Of a DNA stretch of 64,000 bases, positions 36,079 to 63,393 are shown piece by piece. Location: assembly GCA_054600435.1 (NCBI GenBank), contig BAAIJX010000079.1:1-64000 (forward strand), in the 5' to 3' direction. This DNA is from Neophaeotheca triangularis (taxonomy: Eukaryota). Numbering within the stretch: position 1 is the first letter of the stretch; each line of letters begins with the position of its first letter. A model generated the notes under the pieces. The model searched no databases, had not been told where the DNA came from, and was given only the letters and a program-made list of their open reading frames with translations. The translations under genes were made by a program, and so were the position numbers.

Positions 36079-37425
36079 AATGTCCGCGGTGGGTTTTTAG
36101 GTGGGTAGGGCAATTCCCTTCCCATCGCGACGTCGTCGAGTCGAGAGGAGAGCCAGCCAACCAGCCAGCCAGCCCGGGATTCTTCAAAACTCCCTACCGG
36201 CGAACGAGCTAGCTAAGGGGCAGCTCTCAACGCCCATGTTCCCGTTCCGCCGCAGTATGCGCGCGCGAGAACAAGACAAGCAGGGCAAGGGAGAGAGGAG
36301 ACGGGGGTTTGTTGGCGAAAGCGCGGACGCTGCGTCGCTTGTTGTAACTACTCCCTAGGTAGGTAGGTAGTCTTGTAATCTATACGCCCTTTCGTACTCT
36401 AAGTGCTAGTATGTCTTTAGCTGTATCTCCTCGTCTACTAGACTAGACTAGCTATGGCAATGGCAATGGCAGCGATACAGGCACCCGCTCTCACGGCAAT
36501 TCCTTTCACTTATCTCTCTCGCTGGAGCCTTGCTCAGCCGCCCCAATCCCTCCCATCCGCTCGCTCGCTCGCTCGCTCGCGTGTATGTACGTATTAAAGT
36601 CCGCATCCGAGCAGCAATTGCCGAAAGTAGGACCCTGGGAGTGACAGTAGGTAATATCCAGGATGGGCAGCCCAGCCCAGGGCAGCTCTCAATCGATCCC
36701 AGCCCAGCCTACTAGTCACTACCTAGCTAGGTAGGTAGCGCCCTCCAACCCCGCCTCAGCCAATCAATCAACCAACGAACGAGCCGAGAGCGTCGATTGC
36801 TTGCTACCCAAACTCTAACCCTGGCTTAACTGAGGCTTCCATAGGTAACTTAGTTGGGGCATTGTGTTCCGGTCTCAGAATAACAGTACCACCCCCCCCT
36901 TTAGCAACCTTGCCCTAAAGTAGGTAGCTCGACTCCTAATCAATGCCAGCCGCTATGTAACCCCGCCCTAGCCAGCTAATCAATCAACGAACGAGTCGGG
37001 TGCTTGCTGCCCAAACTCTAACCCTGGGTTGACTGCTGCGGTGGCGGTGAGGGTTGGTTTTGGGTTTTGTGTTTGGTTTTGGTTGGTTTGGTGGGGGGGT
37101 TGGGTTGGACTGGTGGGTTTTGGGGTGGTTTGGGGTGTTTGGGAGGTTGTTGGGGGGGTTTGTGGTTTGGGGGGGTTTTTGATGGGTGAGGCGGGGAAGT
37201 GACTATGGGTTGGTTGTTGAAGTTGGTTGTAGTGTTGGCTGGGATTGGGGAGGATGGTTATGTTGGTGGGGATCGTTGTTGTTGATGGTATTATAGCATT
37301 TGGATACGGCCATGGCACTAGGGGAATGGTTTATGAGCATGTAGGTAGAGATCACACTGCCGTCGTCGTCGTCATCGTCGTTAATCGTCGAAGGATCGCA
37401 CAACGATAGCTATGTACATGGACGA

Positions 37426-43752: not shown

Positions 43753-45318
43753 CGCCCCCACTATCCACCACTCTCAGCGCTTCGCCCGCGTCCGCACACC
43801 AGTGCGCAAGAAGTTCATCGATGAACTGGGCGTGGCTTTCGAGGCCGAGGTTTGGGAGGGTCCGTTGCGCGAGCCTTCGCTCGAAGTCGAGTACCATGAG
43901 GCCAATCGGGGAGCCTTTTCTCGTGAGTTCTTCTTGTTCCGTTCCGGCCTTTTTTTTTTTTTTTTTTGTTGGCGTCGACAGTTTGGAGCGGGTGAGCTGA
44001 CTTTTGGGGGCGCTTTTGCTGACGGTAGCGGCTTAAAGCTAGGCGGGTTGAAGGGGGGGATTTTCCTCGTGGGGTTCGGGAGGAGGGGGTTGGTGAGCGG
44101 GAGTCGAGGTCGCCGTTGCAGAGGTTCAGGTCTCCGCCTAAGAAGCCTTTGAGTGTTACCGATCTTGTTGGTCCTGCGTGGTGCGAGTTGCAGTATTGGT
44201 ATAATTTGACCAAGTATGGGCGGGTGCTGCAGACGCCGGCTATGAGGCAGGGGTCTGGGGTGCATAAGGTTTTGGAGGAGCAGGTTCATGGGAAAGAGGT
44301 GGCGGTGGAGGTTACGAGTCGCGAGGACGCTTTTGCGTTGAGGTTGTGGAATGGGATTCAGAGTTTGCGGACGTTGAGGGTTACGGGCATGACGAGGGAG
44401 TTTGAGGTTTGGGGTCTGGTCGAGGGTGAGGTGGTGATTGGGGTTATTGATGAGATTTGTACGACTTGTCCGGATGAGGCTGTGGAGGCTGGGATGTTGG
44501 AGGCCGAGGCTAGGGGTGATGGTGATGGCAAGAAGGGCAAATCGCTGGAAACGAACCAGACCACTCTTTCCAACTTCGTGAGCAATTCTTCGCGGGATGC
44601 TGGCGTTCTTGAAGATAGCAGCGCCTGGTTGGGAAGCTCCCACGAACGACCCAGGACCTTCTACGTCGTCGACATCAAAACTCGCCAATCTCGCTCCCTC
44701 CCCAAACACGGCTCACCCTCCCGTCCAACCCACATCCAACTCCAGCTCTACCACCGCCTCCTGACCTCTCTAGCCGCCAATACCATCTCCCCACTCCTAA
44801 TCTTCGACCGTTACCGCCTAGACCCCAATACCCCCTTCTCAGACAGACTAATCCAACAAATCGGCGGTCTCGATTTCAACTTCCCCTCCCAAACCAACTC
44901 CGACTCCGACTCGCCCGTGGACTTTGAAAGCCCCACCGACGCCGTCTCCGAGCTCCTCTCCCACAACAACCTCCACGCCCTGTGGACCCTCTTCATCACG
45001 GAACTCCAGAAAACCATCCCCAACCCCGCCACCTCCATTTCCCCACTCCTGACGGCAGAATTCCGCGCCGCGGATGATGGCAGCTTGATCGGCAAACGCT
45101 GTTTCGCTTTTGACGGACGCGCGCTGGATCGGTATGTTCGGGATGAGATGGGCTGGTGGAGGGGCGAGAGGCCTGCCAAGGGTGTTGAGATTGAGGATGC
45201 TTATAAGTGTGGGTTTTGTAAGTTTGCTGAGGGTTGTGAGTGGAGGTTGGGCAGGGTGGAGGAGCAGGCGCGGAAGATGAGGTTGAGGAGGGAGGGGAGA
45301 GGGAAGAGTTTGGTTTGA
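43517..45318 (+). CDS. EXO5: Exonuclease V (Exo5/Dem1), 2 exons (intron about 43923-44038)
   Basis: SDYGSD N-terminus, RSPLQRFRSPPKKPLSVTDLVGPAWCELQYWY, GSGVHKVLEEQVH, GMTREFEVWG..GVIDEI, DIKTR, QLQLYH, Fe-S cysteines KCGFCKFAEGCEWR; (AAC)n poly-Asn in exon 1. Confidence 0.92.
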
Positions 45319-46752: not shown

Positions 46753-47054
46753 ATGGTCTCGGACCATGGTCACGGTCGCGCTATGGTCGGTGTCATAGGT
46801 CATAGCTCTAAAGGACTGTTCGTGGTCGGTCCGGCTCTAGTGGCTCTAGCCCTAGTGGCTCTGTCGGTGTATACGGAGGTACATAGGTACATCCGTCTTG
46901 GGCGCCTCGACGCGTCCCGTCTACTCGTTATATGTAAGCCGTTATTTTAGGTAGTTATAGGCCCTTAAATCAACTCTTATTACTGCTCCTACTACTGTCT
47001 CGTTCTACCTATACCGCTATACTCGAGCTACATCCTACTATTATTAGTATGCTA

Positions 47055-48320
47055 ATGTCAAAAGAGTAGAAGAACGCGCGCCAGAGGGAGCTCAGGGCTG
47101 TAAAAAGGCGCGTAATTGACGAGCTTAGAGATGACGAAGAAGGTACTAAAGATACTAGTAGTTAGAGTAAGAGGGTTAAGAGGGGCCATTTCTAGTAGTC
47201 GTAGGAGTAGGTATAGACTATACTTGATAAGCTCTTACAGATTACTCGTACTAGCGGTAGAGGTGATTGCTGTTTATATAAGCAGAGCGAGTGGCAGAAG
47301 CTAGTAGAGGCCCTTCGTACGTAGTATAGTGTAGACATTAACTAGGAGTAGTACTATAGCAAATTGTCGGTATATAAGACCGTATAGAGACAATAGAAGG
47401 CTTATTTAAGACAGCTCTTAGGGTAGGGAAGGAGTACTAAAGGGGTACCGATCCGGTTAGAGGCTAAGGAGGATTACTACTTTAGTATATAGATAGAGTG
47501 TAGGAGGTTTAGGAGGAGACTCCCGCCCTTCTTTAAGGAGCTCTTAGAGCTATTAGGTAACAAGTTACTACAAGGTAATTATGTCTCGTCGATTAACGAC
47601 CTTAGAGATGAGCTTCTTCTACCTTCTATTAAAGAAGGTCGTGCTATTATACTAGTAGATAAGCCTAAGTTAGAGCTAGAGTAGGAGCCGGTAGATAAAC
47701 TAGACTAGGAGCTACCGGAGTAGGAGCTAGTAATAAATAACATAGAGCTAATAGAGTAGGAGTAGTTACCCTAGAAGCGTGCCCCTACGACAGTCCGTAC
47801 CCCGTTAGTTACGCCGCCTATAACTCCTACTTATTCGTTAACACCGAGTAGGGGTTAGGCCGTTTAGACGACTAAGAAGAAGGTTACTACTATAGAGGTT
47901 GTCGCTAATTCAGCCTCTTAGATAGTAGAAGGGTTTACATGCCTTAGCTAGTAGTTTGTAGAGCTCAAGGTGCCCCCTACTACTAAGGTAATAACGCGGT
48001 TAAAGGCCTTACCTTACTTCTAAGCCTTAAGTCTTACCTACCGAGTTATGGCCTTCCATATTATCGTAAACGAGACCGTAGCTACTACCTTCTTACCCCC
48101 TATTACTAAAGAGGAGATAGTCGAAATGCTCTATACCGAGTTTATAGAGCGTAGTGTATAGTTGCCGTAGGAGGAGTCTATTAGTAAGGCCGTAATAGGA
48201 GTAGTTAAAGGTAGTATAGAAGAAGAAGAAGGTCGAGTAATAGGGGAAGAAGGTGTGTTTAGTGTTAGCGAGGTTAAGGGCTTTACTACCTTAGGCATAC
48301 ATTAAAGAAGCAGTAAGATA
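47055..48320 (+). pseudogene. Harbinger ORF1, Myb/SANT-like DNA-binding protein (RIP stops; end approximate)
   Basis: De-RIPed reading W-SQEQVQTMLDKLL..GGRGD...KQSEWQKLVEAL...EQ..SK...KTVWRQW...SGWG, the Myb_DNA-bind_3 pattern. Confidence 0.8.
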
Positions 48321-48339
48321 TAGCTATGACTATCTACTA

Positions 48340-49206
48340 TACTAATAAAACATGAGCTAAGGCGATAGACGAGACTACATCCTTATACCTCTATAAAATT
48401 TAAGCTAGTTACATAACCTTAGACATCCCTTAGACTTCATCCCCTTTAGACATACCTTCGTACGGTATACTCCTAGTAATAACTAGCCCTAGTACAAGAG
48501 GCCTCTTTATATGTCGACAATACTAGCGCCACATCCTCTAAGCAATACGGTCACGCCGCGTAGTGACAATAGGGCTCTTATAAGCACTAGAGGGCCGTCT
48601 AGTATAGCTGTATTCGTCGGTATTAAGGGTTAGGGGCGGTACCTCCTTATGCGCCGGTTAGCTATACGAGTTTATGAAGTTATGAAGGCTATAGAGCGTA
48701 TACACTAGCATTACCTACACCTTAATCGAATACCCTTGCCTAGGGCTATGTTTTAAGATCTCAAAACGAGCCTTAAGTACACTAAATACCCTCTTAACGA
48801 TGTTCTAGAGCTGTACATGGCGTAGGTTAAATAGTTCCTCTAGAGTCTCTAGTTTTACTTACGACTTATACTACTCCTTAAGGTGATACCGCATCTTCAA
48901 GTAGGGTGTCAAGAGCGTCTTGTCTATAGCTATATACCCTACATCTACGAGCTAGTATGCCCTCTTAGGTATCTCAAACCCCTTCATCTTAGCTATATTT
49001 AGTACGGTACCGTCGTTCGTAGAGCCCTCCTACCCTAGTAAGACATATACAAAGTTCATGTCAAAATCTACTACTACTAGCATGTTCTACGATATGAACC
49101 CCTTCTAGTTATGCTATAGACCTTACATATTAGCTAGTATTGCGGCTAGGATGTACGAGCCATTAAGAGTACTAACATACCCTCGAAAGAACGGCTAGAG
49201 CTTCTT
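48340..49206 (-). pseudogene. Harbinger DDE transposase, C-terminal part (end approximate)
   Basis: De-RIPed LWPFFRGCVGALDGSHIP..NRKGFISQNVLAAVDFDMNFVYVLPGWEGSANDG..WLADAGY..LLTPY..RYHLKEW..EELFNLRHAQLRNIVERVFGVLKARFEIL. Confidence 0.92.
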
Positions 49207-49367
49207 TGACACAGTACGACAGTATGGGTCAGTATGTATGGTGTATAAAAGATAGGATAGACTCTCTATCTACAGCTAAAGCTAGAAGTACACACTATAC
49301 ATACTCTCTCCCCCTCTAGGTAGGAAGCTATAAGCCACACCCACACTAGATAACTCCTGCCATAACA
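49207..49367 (-). repeat. 3' LTR (161 bp)
   Basis: Matches 61405-61565 with 14 transitions and no indels. Confidence 0.97.
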
Positions 49368-49408
49368 GGTAGGGGGCTCCTCATGCTTACTATGTCCTCA
49401 TTAAGCCA

Positions 49409-49675
49409 AGACCGTCATGGTCCGTAGGAACCGAGTCGGTCAGTTTAAACCGAGTCGGTCGGTCTAAACTGAGGGGGCTTGCCGAAACCGAGTGGGTTTG
49501 CCGAAACCGAGTTGGTTACGTCAAACCGAGTGGTTTTGTTCGAACCGAGTCGGTTAGTAGGCATCTAGATAGAGTAAAACCGTGCGTGGGGTCCAAACCG
49601 TGTCCGCGGCTTCAAACCGCGCTAGTAGGTTCAAACCGCGCTAGCAAGTTCAAACCGCGCTAGTAGGTCAATCCG
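49409..49675 (+). repeat. 19-bp-phased AAACCG motif array (two blocks, about 14 units)
   Basis: Motif starts at 49409, 49428, 49447, 49466, 49485, 49504, 49523, 49542; then 49577, 49595, 49614, 49633, 49652, 49670. Confidence 0.92.
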
Positions 49676-49813
49676 TAGTAGTAGGTTCGCAGCTCGTGGT
49701 CTAAGGCCGACGGAGTTAGGGAAGAGTATTAGCGTGTCACGCTACTAGGATGAGAAATTAGTGGACCGCGATTCTATTCGATGTGTAACTAAGGAAATAT
49801 CTCGAACTACGGG

Positions 49814-50047
49814 TAGGCAAAAGCCTTCGCTGGATGGAAATCGCTTGTGGGTAGGCGAAAGCCTTCGCTAGATAGAAATTGCTTGCAAGTAGGCGAAAGC
49901 CTTCGCCTAGTGACGCTAAGTTTCGGACGCGGGCTCCGGAAACTGAAGGCAGGTGAACACCTTCGCCTTAATCGCTATATCGGCAGGCAAAAGCCTTCGC
50001 CTAGGGAGAAACGCTAAGCTTAGAGGCAGGTAAAAACCTTCGCCTAG
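49814..50047. repeat. Six copies of palindromic AGGY-N4-RCCT-TCGC motif
   Basis: Copies at 49814, 49852, 49890 (38-bp period), 49950, 49984, 50027. Confidence 0.88.
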
Positions 50048-50228
50048 TAGACTAGAGGGAGAAACAACGTAGGACAGAGGAGCGCGCATCGCGGTTATAC
50101 GGCTAGGCCGAAGTCTACAGCTACCTTGTTAATTTTTTAGGTCAGTGTTGTCTCACTATATCCCGCGCTGACGCGCCGTAGTTTATATAGTCTTCGGACC
50201 GTGGCACTCCTAAGGAGTAAGGAGCGCA

Positions 50229-53168
50229 TCATGCTCTAAAGTACGGCAGCTAGTAGCGTGCGCGCCTAGCTAACCTAGTCTCTATAGGAGGAGAGGCCTT
50301 CTAGCGGCGCACTAAAGGTGTCTAGGCCATAGCCTAAGGGCCTACGTCGTCTTCGGTAAGGTCTATGAATTCGACCTTCTTGGCGCTAGACAGAGGTACT
50401 TTCCCGGGAAAATGGAGGAGGACGGGAAGGGTTTCGGCTACGTCGCGGACAGTCTAGGAGATGCCGGAGGTATCGATTGTGACGGCGTCGAGCGCCTAGG
50501 CTTCTAGCCATTGTTTCTAGCTCTTTATCGTCTCCTACTCACCTTCCTACGGGCTAGGATCTTCGTAGATAGTGATGTCTCCCAAAATCATCCCTTTGTC
50601 CTATACGTCTTGTATTGCTTACATCCTCGCTCTTTGAACTTCCGCCGCCATGATAGCTATAGACTCGGAAGCTACCTTGACTAAGTCGTATTCCTTATGG
50701 GCCACCGCTATTAAGTTCATGGCCCTAGTGCGGACACCGTAGTCTACGCTGTTCATGTCCGACTTTATACTGTCGTAGTTAGTCTCCGCGTCCTAGAAGG
50801 TGCTAAGGGCGTTGATTCGCGCCTCGTAGAAGGCGAAAGCCTTCTAGTTGTACTCGCCTTAGAACTAGCTAGTACGGTACTAATCAATCTAACGCGCGGG
50901 GGAGGTCGGTTGTGAATGGCTCTATACGCCGGAGGCGCGGCGGAACGGGTTATTGCGGAGAGATAGGCTAGTAGGTGTGCGGTTAAACGGGTCGTTCATG
51001 GCGCTCGTATTAAGCGATAGGAAACGCTGTCCGCTACGCGAGCTATACGCTAGTTGTCTACCGCTAGAGGTAGGCTGCAACTACGCCTACTAGTTACCCG
51101 ATGTGCGAGGGTATTGGCCGGCTAGGGTAGCTTTTAGGTACTTATCTTTACGCCCCGAGAGGCCGCTAGACATTAGCGGAAGTTAGGCGCCTAGGACATA
51201 ACTACTATCGGCTAGGGTTCGCGCTTGGCCGGAGTATTAGGTTAGGTAATGGCCGCAGCGGTCCGGGGTAGCTGCTCCGTCGCTAGTGACGCGGTAGAGG
51301 TGGGGAGGAATCTAGAAACCGGCTTCTGACAACGTGGCCTAGTCGTTACCCGCTGCTGTCGTCGGCGAGGTGGAAGTGGACGGCAATCCCATGTAGCGGA
51401 GGGGTATAGGTGGCGGGAACGCCGCCATTCTTGCCATGGGTAGCTCTATGTCGGTATAGCGTTCCGCCGTGTCATCTAGTAGGATATTTCTCTATCCCTA
51501 GACTAGGGGCGGGGTGCGTAGAGTGGCGTTTCGTCCCTCTAACTAACTGTTGACAGTCACGTCGGTCATTAAGCGGTCGGGATGGCTACGGGGTAGCGAT
51601 ACTTGGTTGTCCATGAACTCGCGGTAGGCTAGAGAGATCCTATCCACATCGATAACCGTTAGCCAGCGTATTACTGTCTAGTCTACCTCGAGGTACTCCT
51701 CGTACTAGAACTTTTTGGCGCGGGCTTACCTCTACGTATAGTACGTGGACGGTTTAGTAGCGAGCGTGGGACGCTGCTATAGGAAGCTGCGCGGTAGGTT
51801 CGAGACTGTCGTCATCAGGTCTTTTTCTAGATCTCTAAGTGTCGTCAGGTAGTTGTATAGGTACCCGCTGCCGTAAAGCGTGTAGCATCCGTAGATGCAC
51901 GCATACTACTACTTCCTACTTATGTTTAACTAGAGGATGCCCGGGCGTCCCCTAGGGCGGCGGTTTAGTACTAGCTCGCCGCGAGCAGTAAAGGTCTCGG
52001 GCTAGTTACGGTACAAGATCTCGCTAGTCAGGAGAGAACGCTCCGATATAAGCATGAGCTCGAGCACGTCGCAATCTTCTAGCGCCGCATAGGTTAGTGG
52101 TAAGCTGTCGATGTCGAAACGGGAGTAGAAAGCGTAGTAGTAGTATAAGCCGGTGGTTTCGCCTAGGTTGAGCTCATGGCTAGGGTCACGTGTCATGCCG
52201 ATGCTCTCGGGGCGCTCCGGTAGCGTATACATTTAGTAGAAGTCGTAGGGAACCTTAGGGTTTCCGTACCACACAAAGTACGGGTTTGGTTACGCGCCTC
52301 CCATGTTAGCGAGGCAGTAAGTGATAAGGGGCTAGGGGCAAATCGTATAGAGTACCGCAAGACCGACCGCGCGGAGGACGAGTTCGAAGGCGCCGTCTTG
52401 CTTAAGGGTTTAGACGGACGAGTGTTCTCCCGCGGTCAGGAGTCGGACGGCCGCTACGACTATGTTGTTAAAAACACCGTTCGGTGTAAGGCTTTCGAGT
52501 GTTTCCTAGGGATGTAGTACTCCTAACGAGGTAGTTACGAGCTCATAGGCGTTGTCGATGAGCGCGACGTCTTGCGCCTTATTGCTATTACGTTAAGTAA
52601 CTAGTCGAAAGATAGAAGTAAACAGTGGATCGGCCTACTAGTAAACGGTAACGCAATTAGTAAGCGATTTGAAGGGTCGGAGCGAAGCTAGCTAGTAGGA
52701 GGCGTACTACTATAGACGGAAAGGGAGGTCGGTTTCGTGTAGCGCGAGTAGCTAAATTGTTCGAAGGTTGAGAGCGAGGTCTAAGAATGAAGGCGCTGCC
52801 GCCTTAAGGTCACAGAAAGTGTTATAGTATTCGGGAGTGTTAGGAAGGGTTATATCTACGCTTAGTCTTTCAAAAGCGACCTAGAGCTAACTGTCGCCCT
52901 CTCGGTAGCGGCGCGCGGCTTCTTCTACTGTCTCGTTAGGATTAAGCGCGCCCTATTAGATAAGTTCCTAGCGAGTGTTGTAACCGGGAAGATTTGTGAA
53001 AGGTGACGCCTGAGTTAGGGCCTAACGACGGATACGTAAGGCTTTCTTAGCCGGAGTCTAGGTTATGTCTACTACCGTGCCGGTAGGGACGCTGGGTTTG
53101 AATACCCGCGGCGTGAAAGTAGCGCGGCGGGGGTATAGAGGTAAGGTATACCTGTTTAGCGCCGGTAT
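50229..53168 (-). pseudogene. Extra retrotransposon ORF3, about 980 codons, unknown function (RIP-inactivated)
   Basis: One frame without frameshift; about 56 internal stops by hand count, all TAG/TAA (RIP-type); first in-frame TGA at 50229-50231; start inferred from ATA (RIPed ATG) at 53168. Confidence 0.75.
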
Positions 53169-53442
53169 CGATGTTACAAACCGAAACGCTTTAGAAGGTA
53201 GTTGTGAAGAAGGTAGGGCTAGAGACGGTTAGGATGTTAGTTAAGTCGGTTGTTATAAGTTGAAAGGTAGGAGTTATGGTTAGGAAAAGGTGTCGAGGTA
53301 AGTGTTGTTGTTAGTATTGTTATGAAGCTAGCTAGCGCGTAAGCGAGCGGAAACGCGGCGCCAAGCCGCGGTTACGACGTCACCCCTAACGATGGCGTCG
53401 GTATCGATAAGGTGATAGTGATAAGGAGGTGTACACGACACC

Positions 53443-56400
53443 TTAGGCCTGTCTATAGAAGGCTAGTGTGGCAGACCTCGTCTACCTCCTGACTTCCCTA
53501 CTAGTACAGATAGGGCGAGTCGGTATCACTAGGATTAGTACGCGGTTTGCCGTGGATGCTTGCTACTATTCTTCTCTAGTTTCAGTGTCGGTGGGGGCGG
53601 CGCTCTTAGCCGCCGCTACTAGGGCAGGATTAGTTATTAGGGTATTAGGCTTCCTACCCTTAACCCTAAGGTCTCCCTCCGTACCGGGGTACAGCTCGTC
53701 ATATTGGGCGACCATTTCTCGTGCGTCTAGTAGGTCGTCGATGTCGTACCATACGTTATGAGCTGGCCCCTAGCCGAGCCACTAGACAAGGTACTGTCTA
53801 ATGTCTTTCCCCTATTGCTTTCTCGTTCTACGTGCTAGTAGCCTCTTAATCTCGTATACTCCGACTCCGTCTTCATCTAGGTATACGGGCCTAGGCTCGC
53901 CGGGTTCCTAGCTGTAAGGGTCTAAGCTAGTTAGCGCCGGTTCGAGCTATATAACGGACACGACGGGGTGTATTTTCCAGTGCGGTAGGAGTTCTAGCTC
54001 GTAAGCCAGCTTCCCGACGACCTTAGAGATCTTGAAAGGGCCATATCGCTAGGCCGCTAGTTTCTTTAGGATAAAACCAGGTATTAAGTAACCACGCTAG
54101 AGGCGGAGTAGGATGTTTTGACCCTTTTTGAACCGGATTAGACGGTAGGCTTAGTCGTATCTGTCCTTTATGGCTACTACTACCATCGAGAGAGCGTCTA
54201 TTGCTTAATCGCGGGCTACCTGTCGTAGGGCGACGTAGTCTGCGACCGGAAGCTTAATTAGAGGGTCTAAGGCATCAAGGTTAGATTTGAAACCCTAGAT
54301 GAGGATGTTCGGCACTTATGCCGTCGATACGTTCACGGCGTTGTTTATCGACGATTGTATGTGCGTTAGGGCTACTACCTAGGGGGTATCCGGGTTGCCG
54401 TAGACGAAGAACCGGAGTGCGATCTCGATAGTCTAATTAGTGCGCTCCGACTGCCCGTCGGTCTACGGGTAGTAAGTAGTGGAGGCAAGGAAGCGAGTGT
54501 TTAACTTGGCAAACACTCCCTTCTAGAAAGCGGAAAGCCACAAGGGGTCCCGGTCACCGATAAGCATATAGGGGATATTCCACTCCGCGCTACGGAGAGC
54601 TTCTAGCCATACCGCCGCCCATTCCGGTACGTTCTAGTCGTTCCGCCCCTTGACCAGCAAGATTTTTTTGGAAAAACGGTCTGTGACCGTGAGCATTACG
54701 TCAAAGCCATCTGGCGTTAGAGGAAGCCCCGTTACCTAGTCGGCTGTCTAGGTATAGTAGGGGATCAGCTTGACTTGAGTAGGTTGTAGTTCGCCGAGCG
54801 GCTTAGATCGGAGAGTTTAGCACACCATGTAGTCGGGGCAATACGCGATGTAGCGCTAGAGCTTGTCTACTAGTCGGCGGATGTAAAAACTAGCCTATAT
54901 GCGGGAGTAAGTCCGGAAGAAGCCTACGTGATAGTAGTTATCATGTGCCATGCGGAAAATTTCTTGGAACAAGGGCTTAGGGATGTAAAGTCGTTCGCGG
55001 CTATCTTCCTCGTCGCGGAAATAGATCAACCGGTCTCGTAGAAAGAAGCGCAGTCTAAGGGGACTAGACTCTAGTTCGCCGGCAACATCCTCTAAGCTGC
55101 CCGCCTAGCCGTCGCTTTACGTAGTGGCGTTGTCTAAGGTAGTACGGGCTTCGCACTACTCTAGCTACTAGAGTCGCGGCTGCTAGAAAGTGTCGTTTAC
55201 GTAGCCGGTTCGAATCTCCTCTTTGAAACCGTCGTCTATTACGACTAGGGTGGTATGGAACACTACCGTTATCTATTCCTCGGCGAAATTGTTGTAGTAG
55301 GCGGCCATACTGCTATCGAAATAGTTCTCGTCGGCAGCCTAATTGGCCTCCTCGTAGCCAAGAGGGTCGAGGGTATCGGTATCTGGTTCCTTTGTTGTAG
55401 TGGCTCTATCGCCTAGTAGACGGCTAAGGGCGTCTAGGACTAGGTGGATTCGTCCCGGGCGGTACCTAACGTCGAGGTCGAACTAGCTAAGGTACTACGC
55501 TACCCGGACTAGGCGGAGGTTCAACTTATTAGTTGAAGTAGTCGTGGTAAGGCTAGAGTGGCTTGCTAATGCCGCGACGGCGGAGTGATCCGTGAAGACC
55601 ACCGTTGATTTTGTGAACGCCTAGATCATATGGCGGGCTTTTCGTAATAGCTATACCATGCCGGCCATTTCGAGCTCCGTGGGCTAGTAATTCTTTTCGG
55701 CCGTCGTAAGAGCTTTACTGAGGAATGCTACTAGTTAGATGTCGTGACGGGGGAAATGCAATGCTTTTCCCCTGTTCATTACAGGTTCTAGGTCCCCTGC
55801 CACTATATAGACCACTACTCTAAAGCCGAATTCCTTTGATGCATCGACATCGGTATATAGCTGACAGGTAGGGTCGATGTAATATAGGAACGGTGTGTCG
55901 CGGAAAATGCCCTGTAGTACCGCGAAGGCGCGGTAGGCTGCTTCCCAAATTGAATCGTCTAGGGAAACCGGCGTCTTCTCTAAAAACCGTTTACGCGCTC
56001 CGCCTTTAAGCGGGCTGTCCTTAAGGAGGGCCGTCTTTAGCATTTGCAATAGCTACACGATCTAGGCGTAGTAGGGCACGCATTGCCGTAGCTAGCTAGT
56101 GAGTCTAAGGTACTTTTCTAGGTCTTTGAGCGTTCGGGGAAACTAGAGGTCGACAATAGCCTTAACCTTGTCGTCATGGGTAGCTAGGCCGAGCCCGCTA
56201 ACCTACTAGCCTAGGAGGGTTATGGAGGGGAAACCTAGGAAGGTCTTCGCTAGGCTTAGACTGACTTTAACGGTGTTAAGGCGGCTAAACACCTATGCTA
56301 GGTAGTCTAGGTGTTCTTCTAGGGAGTGTAAGAACACCACGATATCGTCGATGTACGTATGGTAGAAAGGTCTTAGGTCGCGGAGAAGGTTGTCTAACTC

Positions 56401-57888
56401 TCTCTATACATAGGCGATCGAGTTCTTAAAACCCATTACCGCTACCTTAAAGACCTCTTGACCGCGATAGGAGTTCACCGCCAACTTGTGACGGTCTTAG
56501 GCCGCTACTAACCATTAGTAGAAAAAACTGACTGCGTCTATAGTGGATATGAATTAGCAGCCGCGCGTTACCTATAGTAGGTCCTCTTGTAGGGGAAGGG
56601 GGTAGCTGTCCTTCTAGGTAACTTTGTTTAGCCCGCGGATGTCGACTACTACTCGGCCTTTTCGAACCGGCAGCCCGTCCTTAATAACTGTTTTCTAGAC
56701 AACGAAAACTAGGGAGGCAAAACGGGTGTGCTCGGTGCTCCACTCCATCTTGCCTTATACATAGAGCGGATCGAGCGTGTTGTCGACGACTTTTCGATCT
56801 ACTACGCTGAGTGGGAAACCCTTTAAAGAAAGCTTGGCGGATTCCTAACCGTCACGAAGGGGTATCGGCATATGGCGCTACTCGGGAATGTCCACGTAGC
56901 GACCTTTGTCGATGAAAAGCTCCGGGAAGGACTACACTAATTTCTCTAGTGCGGTTACTTGGTCTTACGCTCCGTACACGGTAACGCCGTTTAACAGGAC
57001 GGTCTACTCTACCCGGGGCACTTCCTTATAGAAGGCTGTCTTTAATGGGAGGGCGGCGAGACAGTGACTGTCTAGTTCGACATGGTAACTGCCTTCTTCT
57101 ACCCATTCCGAGACACGACTGAGTGTTAATCCCTCGTGGACGGACACGGCTAGTGAGGTGTCATTGCGAACCATTACGAAGCTGCACTAGGCATCTATAG
57201 CATAGTTGTAGCTAGTGAGGCCGGCTGGCAAATTAGGCGACGGTGTAAACTAGGAGTCTCTGTTTCGTGGTAGGAGTGGGAATGTGGCTTCGACCCTTAG
57301 TAACGAGTTTGGTAGGACCTGGCATTGTTTCGCTACTATAACTGATCTAGCGGTACGCATTCTGTCCCGCTGTTTAACTAGGAGCGGGGCCTACGCTCCA
57401 GTATAGGTACCTAAGGTGACTAACTTCCTCGGGATGTCGATCTTCATGCGCTATAGAGATATGATATCCATGGCTAAAAGCATGAGCGGTTTGAGGTCCC
57501 GCATAACGTGCACCTCATGTCTCATTTCGTAGAGGACTCTCTATCCACTAGAAGCCGCGGGAATCTAGAAAGTAAGCAAAACATGTTCGCGGACCTCCCT
57601 TAACGAAGGGCCCACTCCTCGCACTCGAAACGGTAATTTAGACTTGATACGAGATATGGTAGGGAGCTGCGATAAGAGGAAATGTTCGTCGATGATAGAT
57701 ACTACCGCGCTAGTATCGAGGCAGACGGGGGTGTCTATATTTTGCTGCTAGAAACAGACAGGTATTCTAAGGTAATGGAAATTTCGAAATGCGTATCCCT
57801 CGTATACGGCACCTAGGGCCTACGACTTGACCATGGGTAGGCTCTTAGTCGGATCAGTAATTGTCTGCCCTAGGGCTTTGCCGGCTAG
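53443..57888 (-). pseudogene. pol: Gypsy pol: protease, RT, RNase H, integrase, chromodomain (end approximate)
   Basis: CLDT(G)AVVSIIDEHF near 57710; FISTIDAVSFFY(Q)W near 56530; YIDDIVV near 56350; DVDASKEFGF near 55840; HDN..H.GFFR and DGQSERT in IN; YGPFKI..KLAYEL..HPVVSV; chromodomain YEI.RLLARR..YLV.WLG.GPAHNVWY near 53700-53860. Confidence 0.95.
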
Positions 57889-60800
57889 TCAGGCAGGATC
57901 GCTATACTCGGCTCGCAGGTAGCGATACAGTGCGTTTTTAGTGCCGAACTTAGTTTTGTAGTGCTAGCATCGTTGCTTTACTGGCCTCGGGGACGCTACG
58001 ATAAGCGGTCGTAGCGCCTACTCGGTTATTAGTGTAATGGATACGACGCTACGGAGTGTAGGGCTGTGCTAGGGGAGCACCTTATTGACATATGTATCGA
58101 AAACGTCGTCCTCGGGAGCATAAAGATCATCGCTATTAGTGCCGTAGGCGATTAGGTCTACGAAGTTGTTCTTAAACTCGGCGAGGACATCCTCGCCTTC
58201 TAACTACATTTCTTCACCCTCGTCATCTATAAAGTTGTTAGAAGGGCGCGAGTCTTGGCGATTCTAGCTTTAGCGGTTTTGATTGCGCCAGGTTGCCGCT
58301 AGTTATTACTAGGCTAGTGTGTTGCGCCCCGCCTAGCCATCTCGTGGTGGCGCCGTATCTAAGCGGCGTTTAGCCGAAACGGACGCGTTTCTAAATGGTA
58401 GCGCTTAGGGCGTCTAAGTTAGCCTTTCGCTTAGGCGGGCGCTACTAGGAAGAAACGGCTGGCGTTGTGCTAGAGCCTATTAGGGGGGATTAGTCTGTAG
58501 GCGGAAACCGTTATTGTTGTTTCGTCTAGAACGGCAGTTGTTGAAGCCGCGGTCCTAGATGCTGTCAAATCGCTTACTAGACTCGGCTAGCTGAACTATC
58601 GGACGATTTAGGTAAAGGTCAGTCTAGGTGTCGAAACAGTCCTCTATTTAACGGATGAGGCTCTCTTAGGTTGTTCTTCTATTAGGCTTAGGGATGTTTT
58701 GGCGAAGGGGGGCCTCAATTTTGAGCTAACATTAGGAGAGGCGAGCTGTAAGGCTATCAATTTTGGCCTCCTACGCCTATCGAGTACAACTAAGAACGAA
58801 TTCGGAGGGGGCGCGGCCACTACGCACGTCGTTACGTGTATAGGCCTCCCGGTTAAGGTTACTCATGGCAGTTATGACTAAGACTCGGAATTTATTGCGT
58901 AGGGCTTTTTCCCATCTCTTGATGCTAGAACTACCCCGGAGGTGCCGTCGCTCCGACTTAGTTAGCTACGACATGAGCTAAATAGAAGCTCCTCCGCGAA
59001 GGCACTTCCCTAGGTGTTTATGCGTTTCGGACGACGAATTCACTTCGGCGTAGTCTCTAGTAGATTCCAAGAAGAAATGCACTGATCGATAGTACTACTT
59101 GTTCTAGGCTATAACCTAGTCTCTAGCTAGTGCCTTAGCCGTGCTAAGGTAGGGGTCAAAGTACCTAACCTCCTCCGCTTTAAAGGGGGCATGTTTAGAT
59201 CGAGAGCGAGAGCCGCTACGTTAGGGGCTGTCGACTCGGTCGCCGGAGTCTTCGCGATAGCGGCAGTACCCGCTCCCACGGGAGCGGCGATTACGGCAGT
59301 TACGCCTACGGCTTCGGGATAGGCTGTTAGACGAGGATGATCCCGAGCTTAGGCTAGAGCTACTACTCGGGTCTTAACGCCGGTGGTAGCGAGTGCTATA
59401 GCGGCGTGGCTCGCGGTGGTGACTACGTCCACGAGGCTCGGCTAGAGGTTAAGCGTCGGCTAGGTGTTCGTTTGGCTCCTACGCCTAGAGGTTACCTCTA
59501 CGAAGCCGCTCGGAGCGCGAGTAGTAGCTATCTAGGCGGCTGACAATACGAGAGCCGAAATTCGACTCGACTAAGGGCATGGCGTAGGCATGTTCGTTAT
59601 AGAGATAGCGGTCGATTACGCTAGGAGCACTTACGGGGCCCGAGGGCTAGTTAGCTAGTAGGATGTCGTTTTGCGTAGGACTAGTAGCTACACTCTATCG
59701 GTTCTCTTCGTTACGGGACTCTTTACGGGCGGCAATTAAGTCGCGAATCTCGTTGAAACGAGCTTCGACGTACGCCTCGTTACGTTCTTAGACTTGCTGT
59801 ATCGATTCCTATAAGAGACCTCGGATCGCGTCGAGAGTTAGCACTTAGGCCTATTACTAGGGCGGTCGCTAGGCCGGCTGTTATAGGGGCGGTTACGCCG
59901 GCTACTGTAGCGGCTACTGCGGCGGCTACTACTACGGCTACTCGGGGTAAGGGGGGGCTACTAAGCGGTTTCGCTATACGCGCCTAGGCTAGTCGGGTTC
60001 CCCGTGTACGTCGGCCATAGTAGCTAGCTGCGTTAGGGGTAATAGGGGGTAGGAGGTAAGTTGTTCGAAACGGTGTGGGATATAGCGGAAACTCATGACA
60101 GACGCTTAAGTCGAGGGGGAAGACAGGCGTAGGCTAACTTCGACAGCTGAGTCTGTATTACTAAGACGGGCTAGTTGTATTAGATCGAAGAGAGGCGGCT
60201 CGTTAGGCTAGGCGGGGTTGTCACTTATTGTAGTGCTAAGCGGGGACGAAGAGGGTAGGGGGACTTAGGGTGGAGTCGTAGGGGTAGTGGGTAAGGGGAT
60301 CTACGGGGGGGATAGTTAGGTCTAGGGGGTAGGTAGAGGGATCTAAGGAGGAGACAGGGCGGGCAAGGTAGCTCGGGTAATAGGAGGGAGCTAGCGGTTC
60401 TACGACGGGCGTATCGTGCGGGGAGCGAATGTGGCCGCTAGTATGTCGGCTAGCGTAGATCTCTCGTGCCCAAATTGGAGGCGTAGGTAGTGCCGGATCC
60501 GTTCGTACTAAGCTAGGAAAGTCTTTACTGTAGCGGTAATGAGGGTCTTGTCGACGGACCACTACTCTAGGAAACCGAATTCCCCTTAGGGGGCTCCTCT
60601 AGGGTATACGGCGGTGACCTTCTTAGTAGCTTAGTGTAGCGTCTTGTAGCGGTTCTTCAATGCTTTCGACCGTGTAGGATTAGTGTAGAAGCAAAAGAGT
60701 TAATGAGCTTCCTTAATGTTGTCGGCACTTAACTAGGGTAAGGGTAAGGAAGCCACGGTTACGAAAGGGAAAGACGGCTTAGAGCTTGTTTACTATGTGA

Positions 60801-61100
60801 GGCGTAGCTGCCGAATCGGACAATGGTTATATCTAGGCGGTTTATCGCGATTTGAGTAAAGGGCGGCAGAAAAGGGTGTTATGAGCGTAGCTCGGAGGGG
60901 CGAGAGGTTAGGGTCGCTAGCCTCGTGTAGTACCGGGCTATAAGGCGCCTAGGCGCGTATAGAGATGCTTGCGATCTTCTTAGACGCTTGTCTACTCTCT
61001 ACTGTTTCGATGTCACCCTCGATAGCTCTTTTTCCACTCGGCTCTATACCGAGCTCTCGACTCTACTACTAAGGCCTAGTTCTAATTGCTTTAGTCAGCG
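57889..61100 (-). pseudogene. gag: Gypsy gag (long, Pro/Arg-rich, C-terminal C2H2-type zinc finger); start approximate
   Basis: Same frame as pol; FKAEEV(G)YFDP near 59160; RC.H(C)KT.FGTKNAL(H)R(H)LRAE(H) near 57904-57970; ends at TGA 57889-57891. Confidence 0.75.
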
Positions 61101-61150
61101 TCGGTCCGGGCTAGCATAGGTCACTTAGGACGGGTAAGGTCGCCGGGAGC

Positions 61151-61350
61151 TAGTCGGTTCGTGCTGACGTAATCGGTTTAAGCTAACGGAGACGGTTTAG
61201 AGTAAGCGAGTCGGTTTAGACCAATGAAGTCGGTTTGACCGAAGCGAGTCGGTTTGAGCTAATGGAGTCGGTTTAAGCAGGTCTAGTCGGTTTAAACTAG
61301 CGGAGTCGGTTTGGGCGGGTCGAGTCGGTTTGAAACGGCGGAGTCGGTTT
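61151..61350 (-). repeat. 19-bp-phased (GAGT)CGGTTT array, 11 units with variable spacers
   Basis: CGGTT starts at 61155, 61174, 61193, 61212, 61231, 61250, 61269, 61288, 61307, 61326, 61345. Confidence 0.95.
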
Positions 61351-61393
61351 GAAGAAACTGTCTAGGGATGATCTTGATAGATCTTGACCTTCT

Positions 61394-61402
61394 CAGCTAC
61401 TA
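61394..61402 (-). other. Putative primer binding site (tRNA-iMet-like)
   Basis: TAGTAGCTG 2 nt downstream of the 5' LTR; one RIP-type reversal gives TGGTAGCTG, complementary to a ...CAGCUACCA tRNA 3' end (recalled for Neurospora initiator tRNA, not verified here). Confidence 0.6.
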
Positions 61403-61404
61403 CT

Positions 61405-61565
61405 TGACACAGTATGACAGTATGGGTTAGTATATGTGGTATGTGAAAGATAGGATAGACTCTCTATCTACAGCTAAAGCTAGAAGTATACACTATACAC
61501 ACTCTCTCCCCCTCTAGGTAGGAAGCCACAAGCTACACCCACACCAGATAACTCCTACCATAACA
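61405..61565 (-). repeat. 5' LTR (161 bp)
   Basis: TG...CA, matches 49207-49367. Confidence 0.97.
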
Positions 61566-62044
61566 TTCTTATTACTATAGATTTAGTGTAGAGTAGTAGT
61601 AGTTATAGGTAGTTAAGTCTTTACCTTATACCGTCGTATAAGAGTAAGCAATATTACTTTAATATAACTATAGAGACTAGTAGGTAAGTGCTAGAATGTC
61701 CGCCGTAGACCCCTAAGACTTACTCCCCTAGTATATATATCTAAAAAGATCACTACCTTCTCTACCGCTTTAACTTAGTAACCGTCCTTAAGGCTATACT
61801 CGCTTACTAGCTTATCTACTAACTATATTAAGCTCTCTCTTATCATCCGGGTAACCTCCTTATACCTCTAGTCATTATTTAGTACTAACTAGGTCTCCTT
61901 TACCCCCTTACTAGGCTCTAAAACTAGAGTTTATTAAGGCCCTTATAGTATGTAGTACCGCATAAGGAAGGTTGTAAGCTCCTCTATGACCTTAATGTTA
62001 GCTTCTATCTAAGCGATGACGAGCTCGTCGAGCAGTCTGTTCAT
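61566..62044 (-). pseudogene. Harbinger DDE transposase, N-terminal part
   Basis: ATG at 62044 (MNRLLDELVIA); LKDG..VKAVEKVVIFL...SLRGLRRTF(Q)H(S); removing the Gypsy plus one TSD restores the frame ..SNKKL(W)PFFRG. Confidence 0.85.
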
Positions 62045-62437
62045 AAGAGTAACGCGTATAGCAAAAGCAGTATAGGTTTATAAGAGTAACGCGTATAGTA
62101 AAGGCAGTATGGCAAAAGCAGTATGGCAAAAGCAGTATAGCTTGTAGTAGACGGAGCTATATACACTTTCTATAAAAACACGAACAAGACACGACAGGGT
62201 ATGTACGAGCTATAGGCCATAGGACCATAGGGCTATAGGACTACGAAATACACCTCTAGGGGTGTATTTTGTGGCTCCAAAAAAGACTACGGTCCTATAG
62301 CTCTTAGTGGCTCTAGAGCCATGGCGGAGCTACCATACTACTACGAACAGTCGGAGCTACCAGAACTAGGACCGCTAAGGTACCCCCAAGGTACCTCCAA
62401 TTCACTAATTAGTAGCGAGCCGTGGTCATGGTCCTAG

Positions 62438-62475
62438 GACTACCGTGGTCCTAAACCCTAACTGCGAACAGGCCC
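62438..62475 (-). repeat. Harbinger right TIR
   Basis: Reverse complement GGGCCTGTTCGCAGTTAGGGTTTAGGACCACGGTAGTC. Confidence 0.95.
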
Positions 62476-63393
62476 TTAGTACTAAGTTCCTAAGGAGGTG
62501 GACCTTGTACTTCTAGGTGGCGTCTTTTATCTAATTGGCTGAAGGTTGCTTGTAGGGTTAGAGTTGTAGTCTTGAGCCACTCTAACACTAACCCTATGGT
62601 GGACTAGTGACACCTTCTTTTTGACGACGGTAAGGTATTGATACTGACAGTATTGACTAGAGGTATTAGAATCGCTAAGACAGGTTAGGAAACACAGCTG
62701 AGTATTGGTGTGGAGTGATCAAACAACTCTTACCGCTAATTTACCTTATAAAGACATCGCGACTTGGGAAAACCAACTTGAGGCTCTCTCCCAAGCCCAG
62801 CTCATCCGTCGAGAGGCAGCGTCGGCGTATCAAATGACGACTCACAAGACAGACGTCCAAGAACACGATACTTGTATACCTAATGAAGGACGCCAACGCA
62901 TACGAGGGAAGACAACACGATTGTAAAGCACCCGCCGCCCCGTCCAGCCTTGCAGCACAAGATGATTCGCCACCCAACCTACCCAGGCAGTAAGGTAGCC
63001 GCCCGGATGCCTTTGCAGAAGCACTGCAGCAATCCTCAATCTATGCAATAATGTTAGCAGCCACCGACCTTCGCTTGACGGACGCGCCGCCTGGCCTGCG
63101 GATGACCGGTGTAGCTCGAGCCCCTCACGCGGTCAGGACTCACAGGCTCGGCCTCCTCTTCTGCAACCGGTGAACCAAGCTCCCCGAGCTCCATCAGTCG
63201 CGTAGCCGCTGCCACGCTGCTCCACGCGTGCCTGGGCATGTGAAGAAGCTGGTTATATGTCGACAGCCCCCGCTGTCCAGTGTCGTCTACTTGTCTTGTC
63301 GATGAGCTATCGTTTCTTTCACTTTCGCCCTACCGGTTCGCAGTGTTTACCACTGCTTACTCCTGTTTCTCGCTCCCTCTCGCAGCTGCAAGT

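Follow-up and report, generated by a model that had tools for sequence, protein, structure and literature searches.

The locus described here raises the question of why short AAACCG motifs, repeated at a 19-nt step, should stand in mirror image just inside the two ends of one mobile element. The stretch analysed, called the window below, comprises positions 1 to 64,000 (64,000 nt in all) of contig BAAIJX010000079.1 of Neophaeotheca triangularis (assembly GCA_054600435.1). The arrays are the leader and the trailer of a single Ty3/gypsy chromovirus lying on the minus strand and inactivated by repeat-induced point mutation (RIP). As to what they did in the active ancestors of this dead copy, features of the sequence lead us to favour, tentatively and with less than even confidence, phased protein-binding sites at both ends; pairing of leader with trailer in the RNA is a close second.

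The paired AAACCG arrays are confirmed as a real feature and chance is excluded. Same-strand copies of AAACCG lying 19 nt apart form 15 pairs in the window; 200 dinucleotide shuffles averaged 0.005 such pairs and never gave more than 1. The other spacings from 15 to 23 nt give 0-1 pairs each. The motif itself occurs 55 times (29.5±5.9 in 100 shuffles), with 19 copies in the arrays and 36 elsewhere. On direct reading, the left-hand region at 49409-49688 resolves into two adjoining arrays separated by a 16-nt break. Part A (49409-49560, minus strand) holds eight units of 19 nt in exact register (starts at 49409, 49428 ... 49542), which are AAACCGAGTCGGTT-like on the plus strand and read AACCGACTCGGTTT on the sense strand; [A/G]AACCGAGT is present in six of the eight, the unit at 49409 is a degenerate AGACCGTCA and the one at 49466 is AAACTGAGG. 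Written as a plus-strand consensus, these units are AAACCGAGT[C/G]GGTT. Part B (49577-49688, minus strand) has six units of 18-19 nt, TTCAAACCGCG on the plus and CGCGGTTTGAA on the sense strand, starting at 49577, 49595, 49614, 49633, 49652 and 49670 (spacings 18, 19, 19, 19 and 18); five carry AAACCG[T/C]G and the last is AATCCGTA. The 5' array (61142-61350, minus strand) consists of 11 units of exactly 19 nt, each composed on the sense strand of AAACCGACTC and a 9-nt spacer, with AAACCG at exact 19-nt steps in 10 of the 11 and a higher-order period of 38 nt. An earlier note on this DNA, made from the letters alone, had described eight exact 19-bp units followed by six at 18-19 bp, and a common core and period in inverted orientation just inside both ends; both descriptions are borne out.

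The same note had assigned the arrays to an LTR (long terminal repeat) element, and LTRs, a target-site duplication and a putative primer-binding site (PBS) were indeed found around both of them. The element extends from 49207 to 61565 on the minus strand (12,359 bp). Its LTRs of 161 bp, with TG...CA ends, are located at 49207-49367 (3' LTR) and 61405-61565 (5' LTR), both on the minus strand, and form a direct repeat of 91% identity in which all 14 differences are transitions. The duplicated target TTCTT can be read directly on the left (49202-49206) and on the right (61566-61570), and in sequencing run X1, the probable source run, two contigs break off precisely at the edge of the LTR (49207). 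Adjoining the 5' LTR is the PBS region (61392-61404, minus strand; sense AG-TAGTAGC-TGAG), whose TAGTAGC aligns with the TGGTAGC found at the same place in five related elements (L010, L012, L019, L020 and L024, introduced below), and is probably a RIP-altered, PBS-like form of it. The stretch before the 3' LTR, GAGGAGCCCCCTACC, shows no clear purine run. In sense order we therefore read 5' LTR, PBS, 54 nt, 11 × (AAACCGACTC + 9 nt), about 1.1 kb of leader and gag-pol, followed by ORF2, palindromic 38-nt repeats, 6 × CGCGGTTTGAA, 8 × AACCGACTCGGTTT, 41 nt and the 3' LTR. The distance of the arrays to their own LTRs is thus 54 nt at the 5' end and 41-60 nt at the 3' end, and both fall within the transcript. 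What the earlier note called the 5' array is correctly named as the leader array, but it lies downstream in window coordinates, since the element is on the minus strand. A second type of trailer repeat occupies 49805-50048 (minus strand), made of units of about 38 nt with the palindrome AGGCGAAAGCCTTCGCCT (repeat families D4, D6 and D9) and with a sense-strand fold z of -2.55; an extra copy of it is found at 50821-50851. An Rfam search of 48500-62300, with E-values up to 1, returned no match.

The gag-pol frame (53540-60096, minus strand) is a single frame of 2,199 codons without frameshift, interrupted by 117 in-frame stops, of which those listed are nearly all TAG or TAA. Pfam comparison of the six-frame translation, with stops written as X, detected RVT_1 (E-value = 1.2e-12), RT_RNaseH (2.1e-11) and Integrase_H2C2 (1.1e-7), followed in the same minus-strand frame by SH3_Tf2-1 (5.2e-8) and Chromo (2e-6), the matches running from about 56661 to 53695. 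This is the chromovirus order of reverse transcriptase (RT), RNase H, integrase and C-terminal chromodomain; Pfam showed no protease or gag domain in this frame. The closest polyproteins are those of fungal chromoviruses (44-47% identity), the named ones coming from Diplodia, Parastagonospora and Lasallia. RIP is usually called at TpA/ApT >0.89 and (CpA+TpG)/(ApC+GpT) <1.03; the element gives 2.15 and 0.55, against 0.77 and 1.14 for window bases 1-46000, where the genes lie. Inactivation by RIP follows from these indices, from the transition-only differences between the LTRs and from the 117 stops in a preserved frame. Because RIP depletes TGA in all frames, TGA-free frames are unfit for finding former open reading frames (ORFs), as seen in the gag-pol frame, which remains TGA-free 1.3 kb into the non-coding leader; former ORFs were accordingly sought by testing for period 3 and with a codon model built on gag-pol.

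Comparison of the units showed how the two arrays are related. The 5' array and part A are inverted copies of one ancestral array, homologous across the whole 19-nt unit: when the sense strand of the 5' units is compared with the plus strand of the A units, spacer identity amounts to 0.409, a level that none of 2000 permutations reached (0.264±0.026) and that about equals the 0.398 found within the 5' array. Part B spacers are weakly related to the 5' units (0.302 vs. 0.25, p = 0.035), and a 26-nt stretch at 49594-49619 is 85% complementary to 61326-61351 across a spacer. Two claims of the earlier note, that the spacers are different and that this is not a simple inverted duplication, consequently have to be given up, the significant whole-unit homology in inverted orientation pointing to an origin by inverted duplication. 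The ancestral unit was a palindrome, AACCGA-N-TCGGTT, now decayed in the 5' array and in part A, where palindrome scores are 3.55/6 (control 1.74±0.32) and 4.57/6 (control 2.02±0.42), neither being reached in 2000 controls; part B units are not palindromic.

In each array the half-site nearer its own LTR and the 19-nt phase were kept, and the spacers diverged. Mismatches to the consensus number 7/110 in the cores vs. 46/99 in the spacers of the 5' array (Fisher p = 1e-11), 4/63 vs. 24/70 in part A (8e-5) and 5/48 vs. 19/66 in part B (0.02). The cores contain neither CpA nor TpG and are spared by RIP, which could mimic core conservation. RIP, however, makes no transversions, and in each of the three arrays the cores carry 3-9 times fewer of them than the spacers (0.06 vs. 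0.27-0.29 in the 5' array, 0.03 vs. 0.29-0.30 in part A and 0.06 vs. 0.20 in part B). Intervals of exactly 19 nt were counted in 10/10 cases in the 5' array and 7/7 in part A, with no indel in these 17 despite a spacer divergence of about 60%. From the scarcity of core transversions, which RIP does not make, together with the indel-free phase, we infer that core and phase were once under selection, which accounts for the pattern better than RIP or neutral drift. A plain tandem repeat or satellite was considered as well and is ruled out by the core-only conservation, the mutations not being spread evenly over the whole unit. Four or more AAACCG at 19-nt steps were also sought in prokaryotes, giving 109 stretches (L090-L169) in bacteria and archaea; the 11 inspected are near-perfect whole-unit 19-bp tandem repeats of varied sequence, unrelated to the arrays. 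Such 19-bp repeats occur several times per genome in Actinomyces ruminis and in one Bacteroidales metagenome-assembled genome.

Two inverted arrays in one transcript can pair, and the earlier note had proposed that they form an RNA zipper. Cofolding of leader and trailer gave a ddG of -35.9 kcal/mol, against -11.3±4.0 in 100 shuffles (lowest -23.2). Taken alone with the leader, part A reached -23.8 (shuffles -8.8±3.2) and part B -37.7 (shuffles -9.8±3.7). The helices are colinear, unit by unit, joining leader positions 61351, 61342-61326, 61295, 61257 and 61240 with 49594-49675, and one of them is 16 bp long. The main predicted partner of the 5' array is thus part B; part A mostly folds on itself (z -3.7) and contributes nothing to the intermolecular helices of the joint fold. 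The 5' array, rich in C and A on the sense strand, is less structured there than its shuffles (minimum free energy z +1.5). At unit position 8 a C-C mismatch is fixed: C stands there in 10 of the 11 units of the 5' array, and its counterpart in 7 of 7 units of part A. The zipper proposal therefore holds in so far as pairing is colinear and far above shuffles, but the antisense strands pair equally well (-39.5) and part A prefers to fold alone. Pairing follows automatically from inverted homology, as any inverted duplication would give it, and its equal strength on both strands does not favour an RNA reading. The cores are invariant in the window copy, which leaves no covariation to score, and no array-bearing relative was found.

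A further lead concerns the initiator tRNA. That of Saccharomyces cerevisiae holds AAACCGAG, which spans the end of the T loop and the 3' side of the T stem, with GCTACCA following a few bases later (PMC7957392). The plus-strand core of the A units is the same AAACCGAG, so that the sense trailer CTCGGTTT is complementary over 8 nt to the yeast tRNA, which is not the host's. At two A-unit junctions the complement to the T arm of this yeast, not host, tRNA extends by eye to 10 nt. The PBS of the clade, TGGTAGC, is complementary to GCTACCA, the match being only 7 nt. A human tRNA-Val also carries the word AAACCGAG. No tRNA genes were detected in the window or in 32 related loci, and complements of the T loop in the untranslated regions (UTRs) of the relatives, at up to 2 mismatches, were scattered matches only.

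Between pol and the 3' arrays lies a former ORF of about 1,000 codons, ORF2 (50229-53525, minus strand), with 64 RIP-type stops (TAG/TAA/TGA). Its region shows a period-3 signal of up to 9.3, comparable with that of pol, and the gag-pol codon model chose one single minus-strand frame throughout 50000-53300; on these two grounds the 4.2 kb from pol to the 3' arrays are not plain UTR. With phmmer, ORF2 has nine relatives (best E-value = 2.5e-35), hypothetical proteins of Polychaeton citri, of Elasticomyces elasticus (several accessions) and of metagenomes, some of them multi-copy. They form a small family with no known domain, so far met only in a few Dothideomycete genomes and in metagenomes. 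Comparison of ORF2 and the nine homologues with Pfam, NCBIfam and PDB-sequence profiles gave no match or noise; a word-indexed protein search with ORF2 found no relative and the ESM Atlas no usable match. Related polyproteins had no tblastn match in the leader or in the ORF2 region. Concerning other copies, diverged contigs of run X1 cover about 49298-49501 (LTR edge and array start) and 50673-53496 of ORF2, with hundreds of differing letters, so other copies of this part exist. For about 53972-61186 there is no second diverged contig among those listed for run X1, which, depth not being copy number, does not bear on how many copies of the 5' part exist. Runs X2 and X3 of this organism gave no contig over the region, which does not prove absence.

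Relatives of the element were sought by a profile scan of metagenome contigs, which yielded 80 loci with 25-41% pol identity, belonging to other families than the window element. The 42 loci of at least 6 kb were self-compared and 19 showed an LTR pair around pol (L035 and L068 were left out, their repeats not flanking it); these 19 full-length relatives have LTRs of 98-350 bp and measure about 6.6-9.8 kb. About eight of them (L012, L019, L020, L024, L030, L041, L074 and L078) carry a short leader tandem array with periods of 9-85 nt, no farther than about 600 nt from the 5' LTR, and have no 3' partner. The leader arrays of L019, L020, L024, L041, L074 and L078 are lineage-specific, with periods of 15-85 nt, and the 32-nt leader unit shared by L020 and L078 contains CTCTC...GAGAG. 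Paired arrays were tested by counting 7-mers shared between the first and the last 500 nt of the interior, in both orientations, against shuffles. The window element gave 82 and 128 in the two orientations (shuffle maxima 34 and 35); of the others, only L072 and L086, AT-rich low-complexity loci, exceeded their shuffles in both. L024 was rejected as a paired array, its excess in one orientation consisting of two copies of the 9-mer CTGCGAAAG. Paired leader and trailer arrays were found in 0 of the 19 full-length relatives, and ORF2 is encoded by none of the 80 loci; measured against these sets, both features appear to be specific to the family of the window element.

The earlier note had treated relatives lacking the 3' array as decisive against its proposal. 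The 3' array is indeed missing from all 19, but they are only distantly related at the above pol identity, and what its absence weakens is a clade-wide requirement in replication, not a function within the element's own family. Other searches added little: the periodic pattern occurred at 9 loci of viral contigs with 1-2 matches each, the related polyprotein P0004 matched nothing in viral contigs, and a metagenome pattern scan with the element's own read-through polyprotein gave 14 matches with no relative among them. As a separate observation, L010, L012, L020, L030, L043 and L078 have a GC-rich hairpin, a T-rich run and GGGCA-like bases about 45 nt before the 3' LTR and also share the 7-nt PBS TGGTAGC; the window element is without the hairpin.

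Some features of the surroundings and of the interior are recorded here for completeness. The element has inserted into a Harbinger/PIF-like transposon that is itself RIP-mutated (DDE_Tnp_4 at about 48678-49107, minus strand, E-value = 2.9e-12), and RIP indices are 2.2-2.4 in the flanks at 47000-49206 and 61566-63000. In one contig of run X1, position 49141 is joined to 61591, as would be expected of an insertion-free copy of the flanking repeat. A 27-nt direct repeat (89%) links 53882-53908, near the end of pol, with 59975-60001, where gag begins, and a 19-nt copy in inverted orientation (95%) links 59971-59989 with 60947-60965 in the leader, all copies sharing TATACGCGCCTAGGC. Farther out, the C-terminal end of an Exonuclease V (Exo5) gene (45001-45246, plus strand, E-value = 7.5e-27) borders the repeat-rich region, and at 37050-37180, between genes, there is a long GGTTTTGGGG-like tract of low complexity, rich in G and T.

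Three features lead us to favour binding of a protein to phased sites: a phase that is exact, units that are palindromic and conservation restricted to the core. The nearest precedent is the Su(Hw) array of Drosophila gypsy. A palindrome is the usual shape of the DNA site of a dimer. Exact phase would be unneeded for an RNA helix, whose loops may be unequal, and is often needed by protein lattices. Additionally, ORF2 and the paired arrays, two seemingly lineage-specific features, go together, which we count for protein sites. In the active element, the 9-10-bp cores would have been candidate docking sites for a sequence-specific protein, supplied either by the host or by the element itself, for instance ORF2. 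Such a protein, binding every 19 bp, would build a phased nucleoprotein array just inside each LTR, and the mirror-image arrangement would let both ends of the DNA copy show the same face. The resulting symmetric effect could be pairing or tethering of the ends, or the setting of enhancer or insulator blocks like the gypsy Su(Hw) sites. A narrower version, which we regard as rather unlikely, is an element with its own end-recognition, in which the ORF2 protein would bind the phased near-palindromic sites inside both LTRs, either on the DNA copy or on the RNA, and bridge or mark the ends; if true, the subterminal binding sites of this LTR retrotransposon would be organised like those of a transposase or like iterons. 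Several points weigh against protein sites altogether. No core-binding protein was identified, and ORF2 and its nine homologues match no Pfam, NCBIfam or PDB-sequence family, which leaves nothing to suggest that ORF2 binds nucleic acid. Outside the arrays, the 36 copies of AAACCG in the window (29.5±5.9 expected) give no sign of a host regulon. A step of 19 bp corresponds to about 1.8 helical turns, which is no whole number. The conserved halves, AAACCGA in the leader and TCGGTTT in the sense trailer, are exactly those that pair in RNA, and the sense 5' array is unusually unstructured; these two findings would fit the RNA rival at least as well. Lastly, there is a single RIP-mutated copy and no array-bearing relative, which leaves no covariation test.

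Symmetric protein sites and the RNA zipper had both been put forward in the earlier note, and both are compatible, as candidates, with the tests run. In the zipper or panhandle, leader AAACCGA would pair with trailer UCGGUUU / CGGUUUGA and bring the PBS and R-U5 beside the polypurine tract (PPT) and U3-R, aiding initiation and first-strand transfer like CYC5/CYC3 in Ty1. We consider it possible though doubtful. It gains from the cofolding energy, from parts A and B each beating their own shuffles, from the colinear helices and from the position of both arrays within the transcript at similar distances from the LTRs; moreover, each unit has kept precisely that half by which it pairs with the opposite array, the lack of structure in the sense 5' array leaves it accessible, and very short LTRs (161 bp) go with a clade PBS match of only 7 nt. 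Ty1 and Ty3 both need an interaction of the ends of their genomic RNA (gRNA), according to the accounts in PMC4974528 and PMC7969010. On the other side stand pairing that inverted homology yields automatically and as strongly in antisense, the fixed C-C mismatch at unit position 8, the self-folding of part A without intermolecular helices in the joint fold, an exact 19-nt phase that helices would probably not need, and the lack of paired arrays in all 19 relatives. Much the same end-to-end contact could be mediated by the primer: the trailer units would be extra T-arm sites for the initiator tRNA-Met, a multi-copy version of the '3' PBS' of Ty3, with the leader mimicking the tRNA. Here the complementarity of the sense trailer to AAACCGAG of the yeast initiator tRNA (8 nt, and 10 nt at two junctions) and of the clade PBS TGGTAGC to GCTACCA is in favour, and complements of the T and D arms are used by Ty1 and Ty3, with two in the 3' UTR of Ty3 (PMC4974528). 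However, the tRNA compared is that of yeast and not of the host, T stems vary between species and a human tRNA-Val shares the word; an 8-nt match found post hoc is weak evidence, part B matches over only 6 nt, and the UTRs of the relatives hold only scattered T-loop complements. We therefore regard this as very unlikely. The boldest form would have the arrays cyclise the RNA as a mimic and an anti-mimic, each in multiple copies, of the T arm of the initiator tRNA.

The arrays may also have had no function at all, a tandem array born by slippage, like those of many LTR-retrotransposon UTRs, having been copied in inverted orientation through an error of reverse transcription or recombination and decaying since. 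Such a history agrees with the unpaired leader arrays of about eight of the 19 relatives, with the whole-unit inverted homology, which indicates a duplication origin, and with cores that are spared by RIP for want of CpA and TpG. It does not agree with transversions 3-9 times rarer in the cores of all three arrays, nor with 17 indel-free intervals despite about 60% spacer divergence; neutral decay would not distinguish core from spacer, an expectation illustrated by ordinary 19-bp repeats, which agree over the whole unit, and we judge an accident unlikely. Mirror-image subterminal motif arrays are typical of DNA transposons, and the element does sit in a RIP-mutated Harbinger/PIF-like transposon, so the arrays could be read as subterminal repeats of a DNA transposon, with the retroelement parts secondary. 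The anatomy contradicts this reading, which is hardly tenable: the arrays lie inside direct 161-bp LTRs with TG..CA ends and a 5-bp target duplication, a PBS-like sequence lies directly beside the 5' LTR, the interior is taken up by gag-pol and ORF2, which run the same way and show no frame breaks, no terminal inverted repeats are found at the array edges, and the Harbinger remnant lies outside the LTRs, split by the insertion. Phased protein-binding sites in the active ancestors remain our preferred, if tentative, reading.

LTR retrotransposons are not known to recognise their own ends by anything other than the tips of the LTRs, the PBS and the PPT. The arrays could point to an extra layer of end biology, either a protein lattice at the cDNA ends or a multivalent end-to-end contact of the RNA. 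Either of these, if true, would be a new type of cis element for LTR retrotransposons, and the ORF2 family would gain a testable role. If the arrays are instead a relic, they still illustrate clearly how motifs can resist RIP and how a retroelement can carry an inverted duplication of its own sequence. Two mirrored arrays inside both LTRs are in any case unusual for an LTR retrotransposon. Tandem arrays beside LTRs also occur in plant LTR elements. The tandem repeats of LTR-retrotransposon UTRs are single arrays with similarity over the whole unit, whereas here two homologous arrays stand in mirror image and only the core is conserved; literature searches, too narrow to establish that none has been published, found no description of mirror-image leader and trailer arrays in LTR retrotransposons.

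Among systems with known function, the plasmid iterons and the subterminal transposase sites of Ac and En/Spm resemble the arrays in having many copies of a short motif, in both orientations, near both ends, with conserved cores and free spacers, and iterons also have an exact period. The window element differs from them in being bounded by direct LTRs and a 5-bp duplication and in moving through RNA, and no transposase- or Rep-like protein was recognisable in it by the Pfam scan and the ORF2 profile searches. Concerning yeast retrotransposons, CYC5 and CYC3 join the gRNA ends of Ty1 directly, and those of Ty3 are joined via the initiator tRNA-Met (PMC4974528, PMC7969010, PMC11381356). Like them, the window element has candidate cis elements after the PBS and in the 3' UTR, and its clade shares a very short initiator-tRNA-Met PBS. 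In Ty1 and Ty3, however, these are single short segments with genetically shown function, whereas here there are 11 + 14 phased repeats, with a computed pairing potential that is not strand-specific. Closest to our preferred reading is the insulator of Drosophila gypsy, 340 bp of 5' UTR with 12 Su(Hw) sites of a 12-bp consensus and short variable spacers (PMC2374998). The likeness lies in a Ty3/gypsy-type element with about a dozen short sites in the leader just after the 5' LTR (PMC2374998). Gypsy differs in having one array and another motif, and no exact phase is reported in the part of that source describing the insulator (PMC2374998). The window element, in turn, has a second, mirror-image array before the 3' LTR, an exact 19-bp phase, palindromic units and a binder that is putative.

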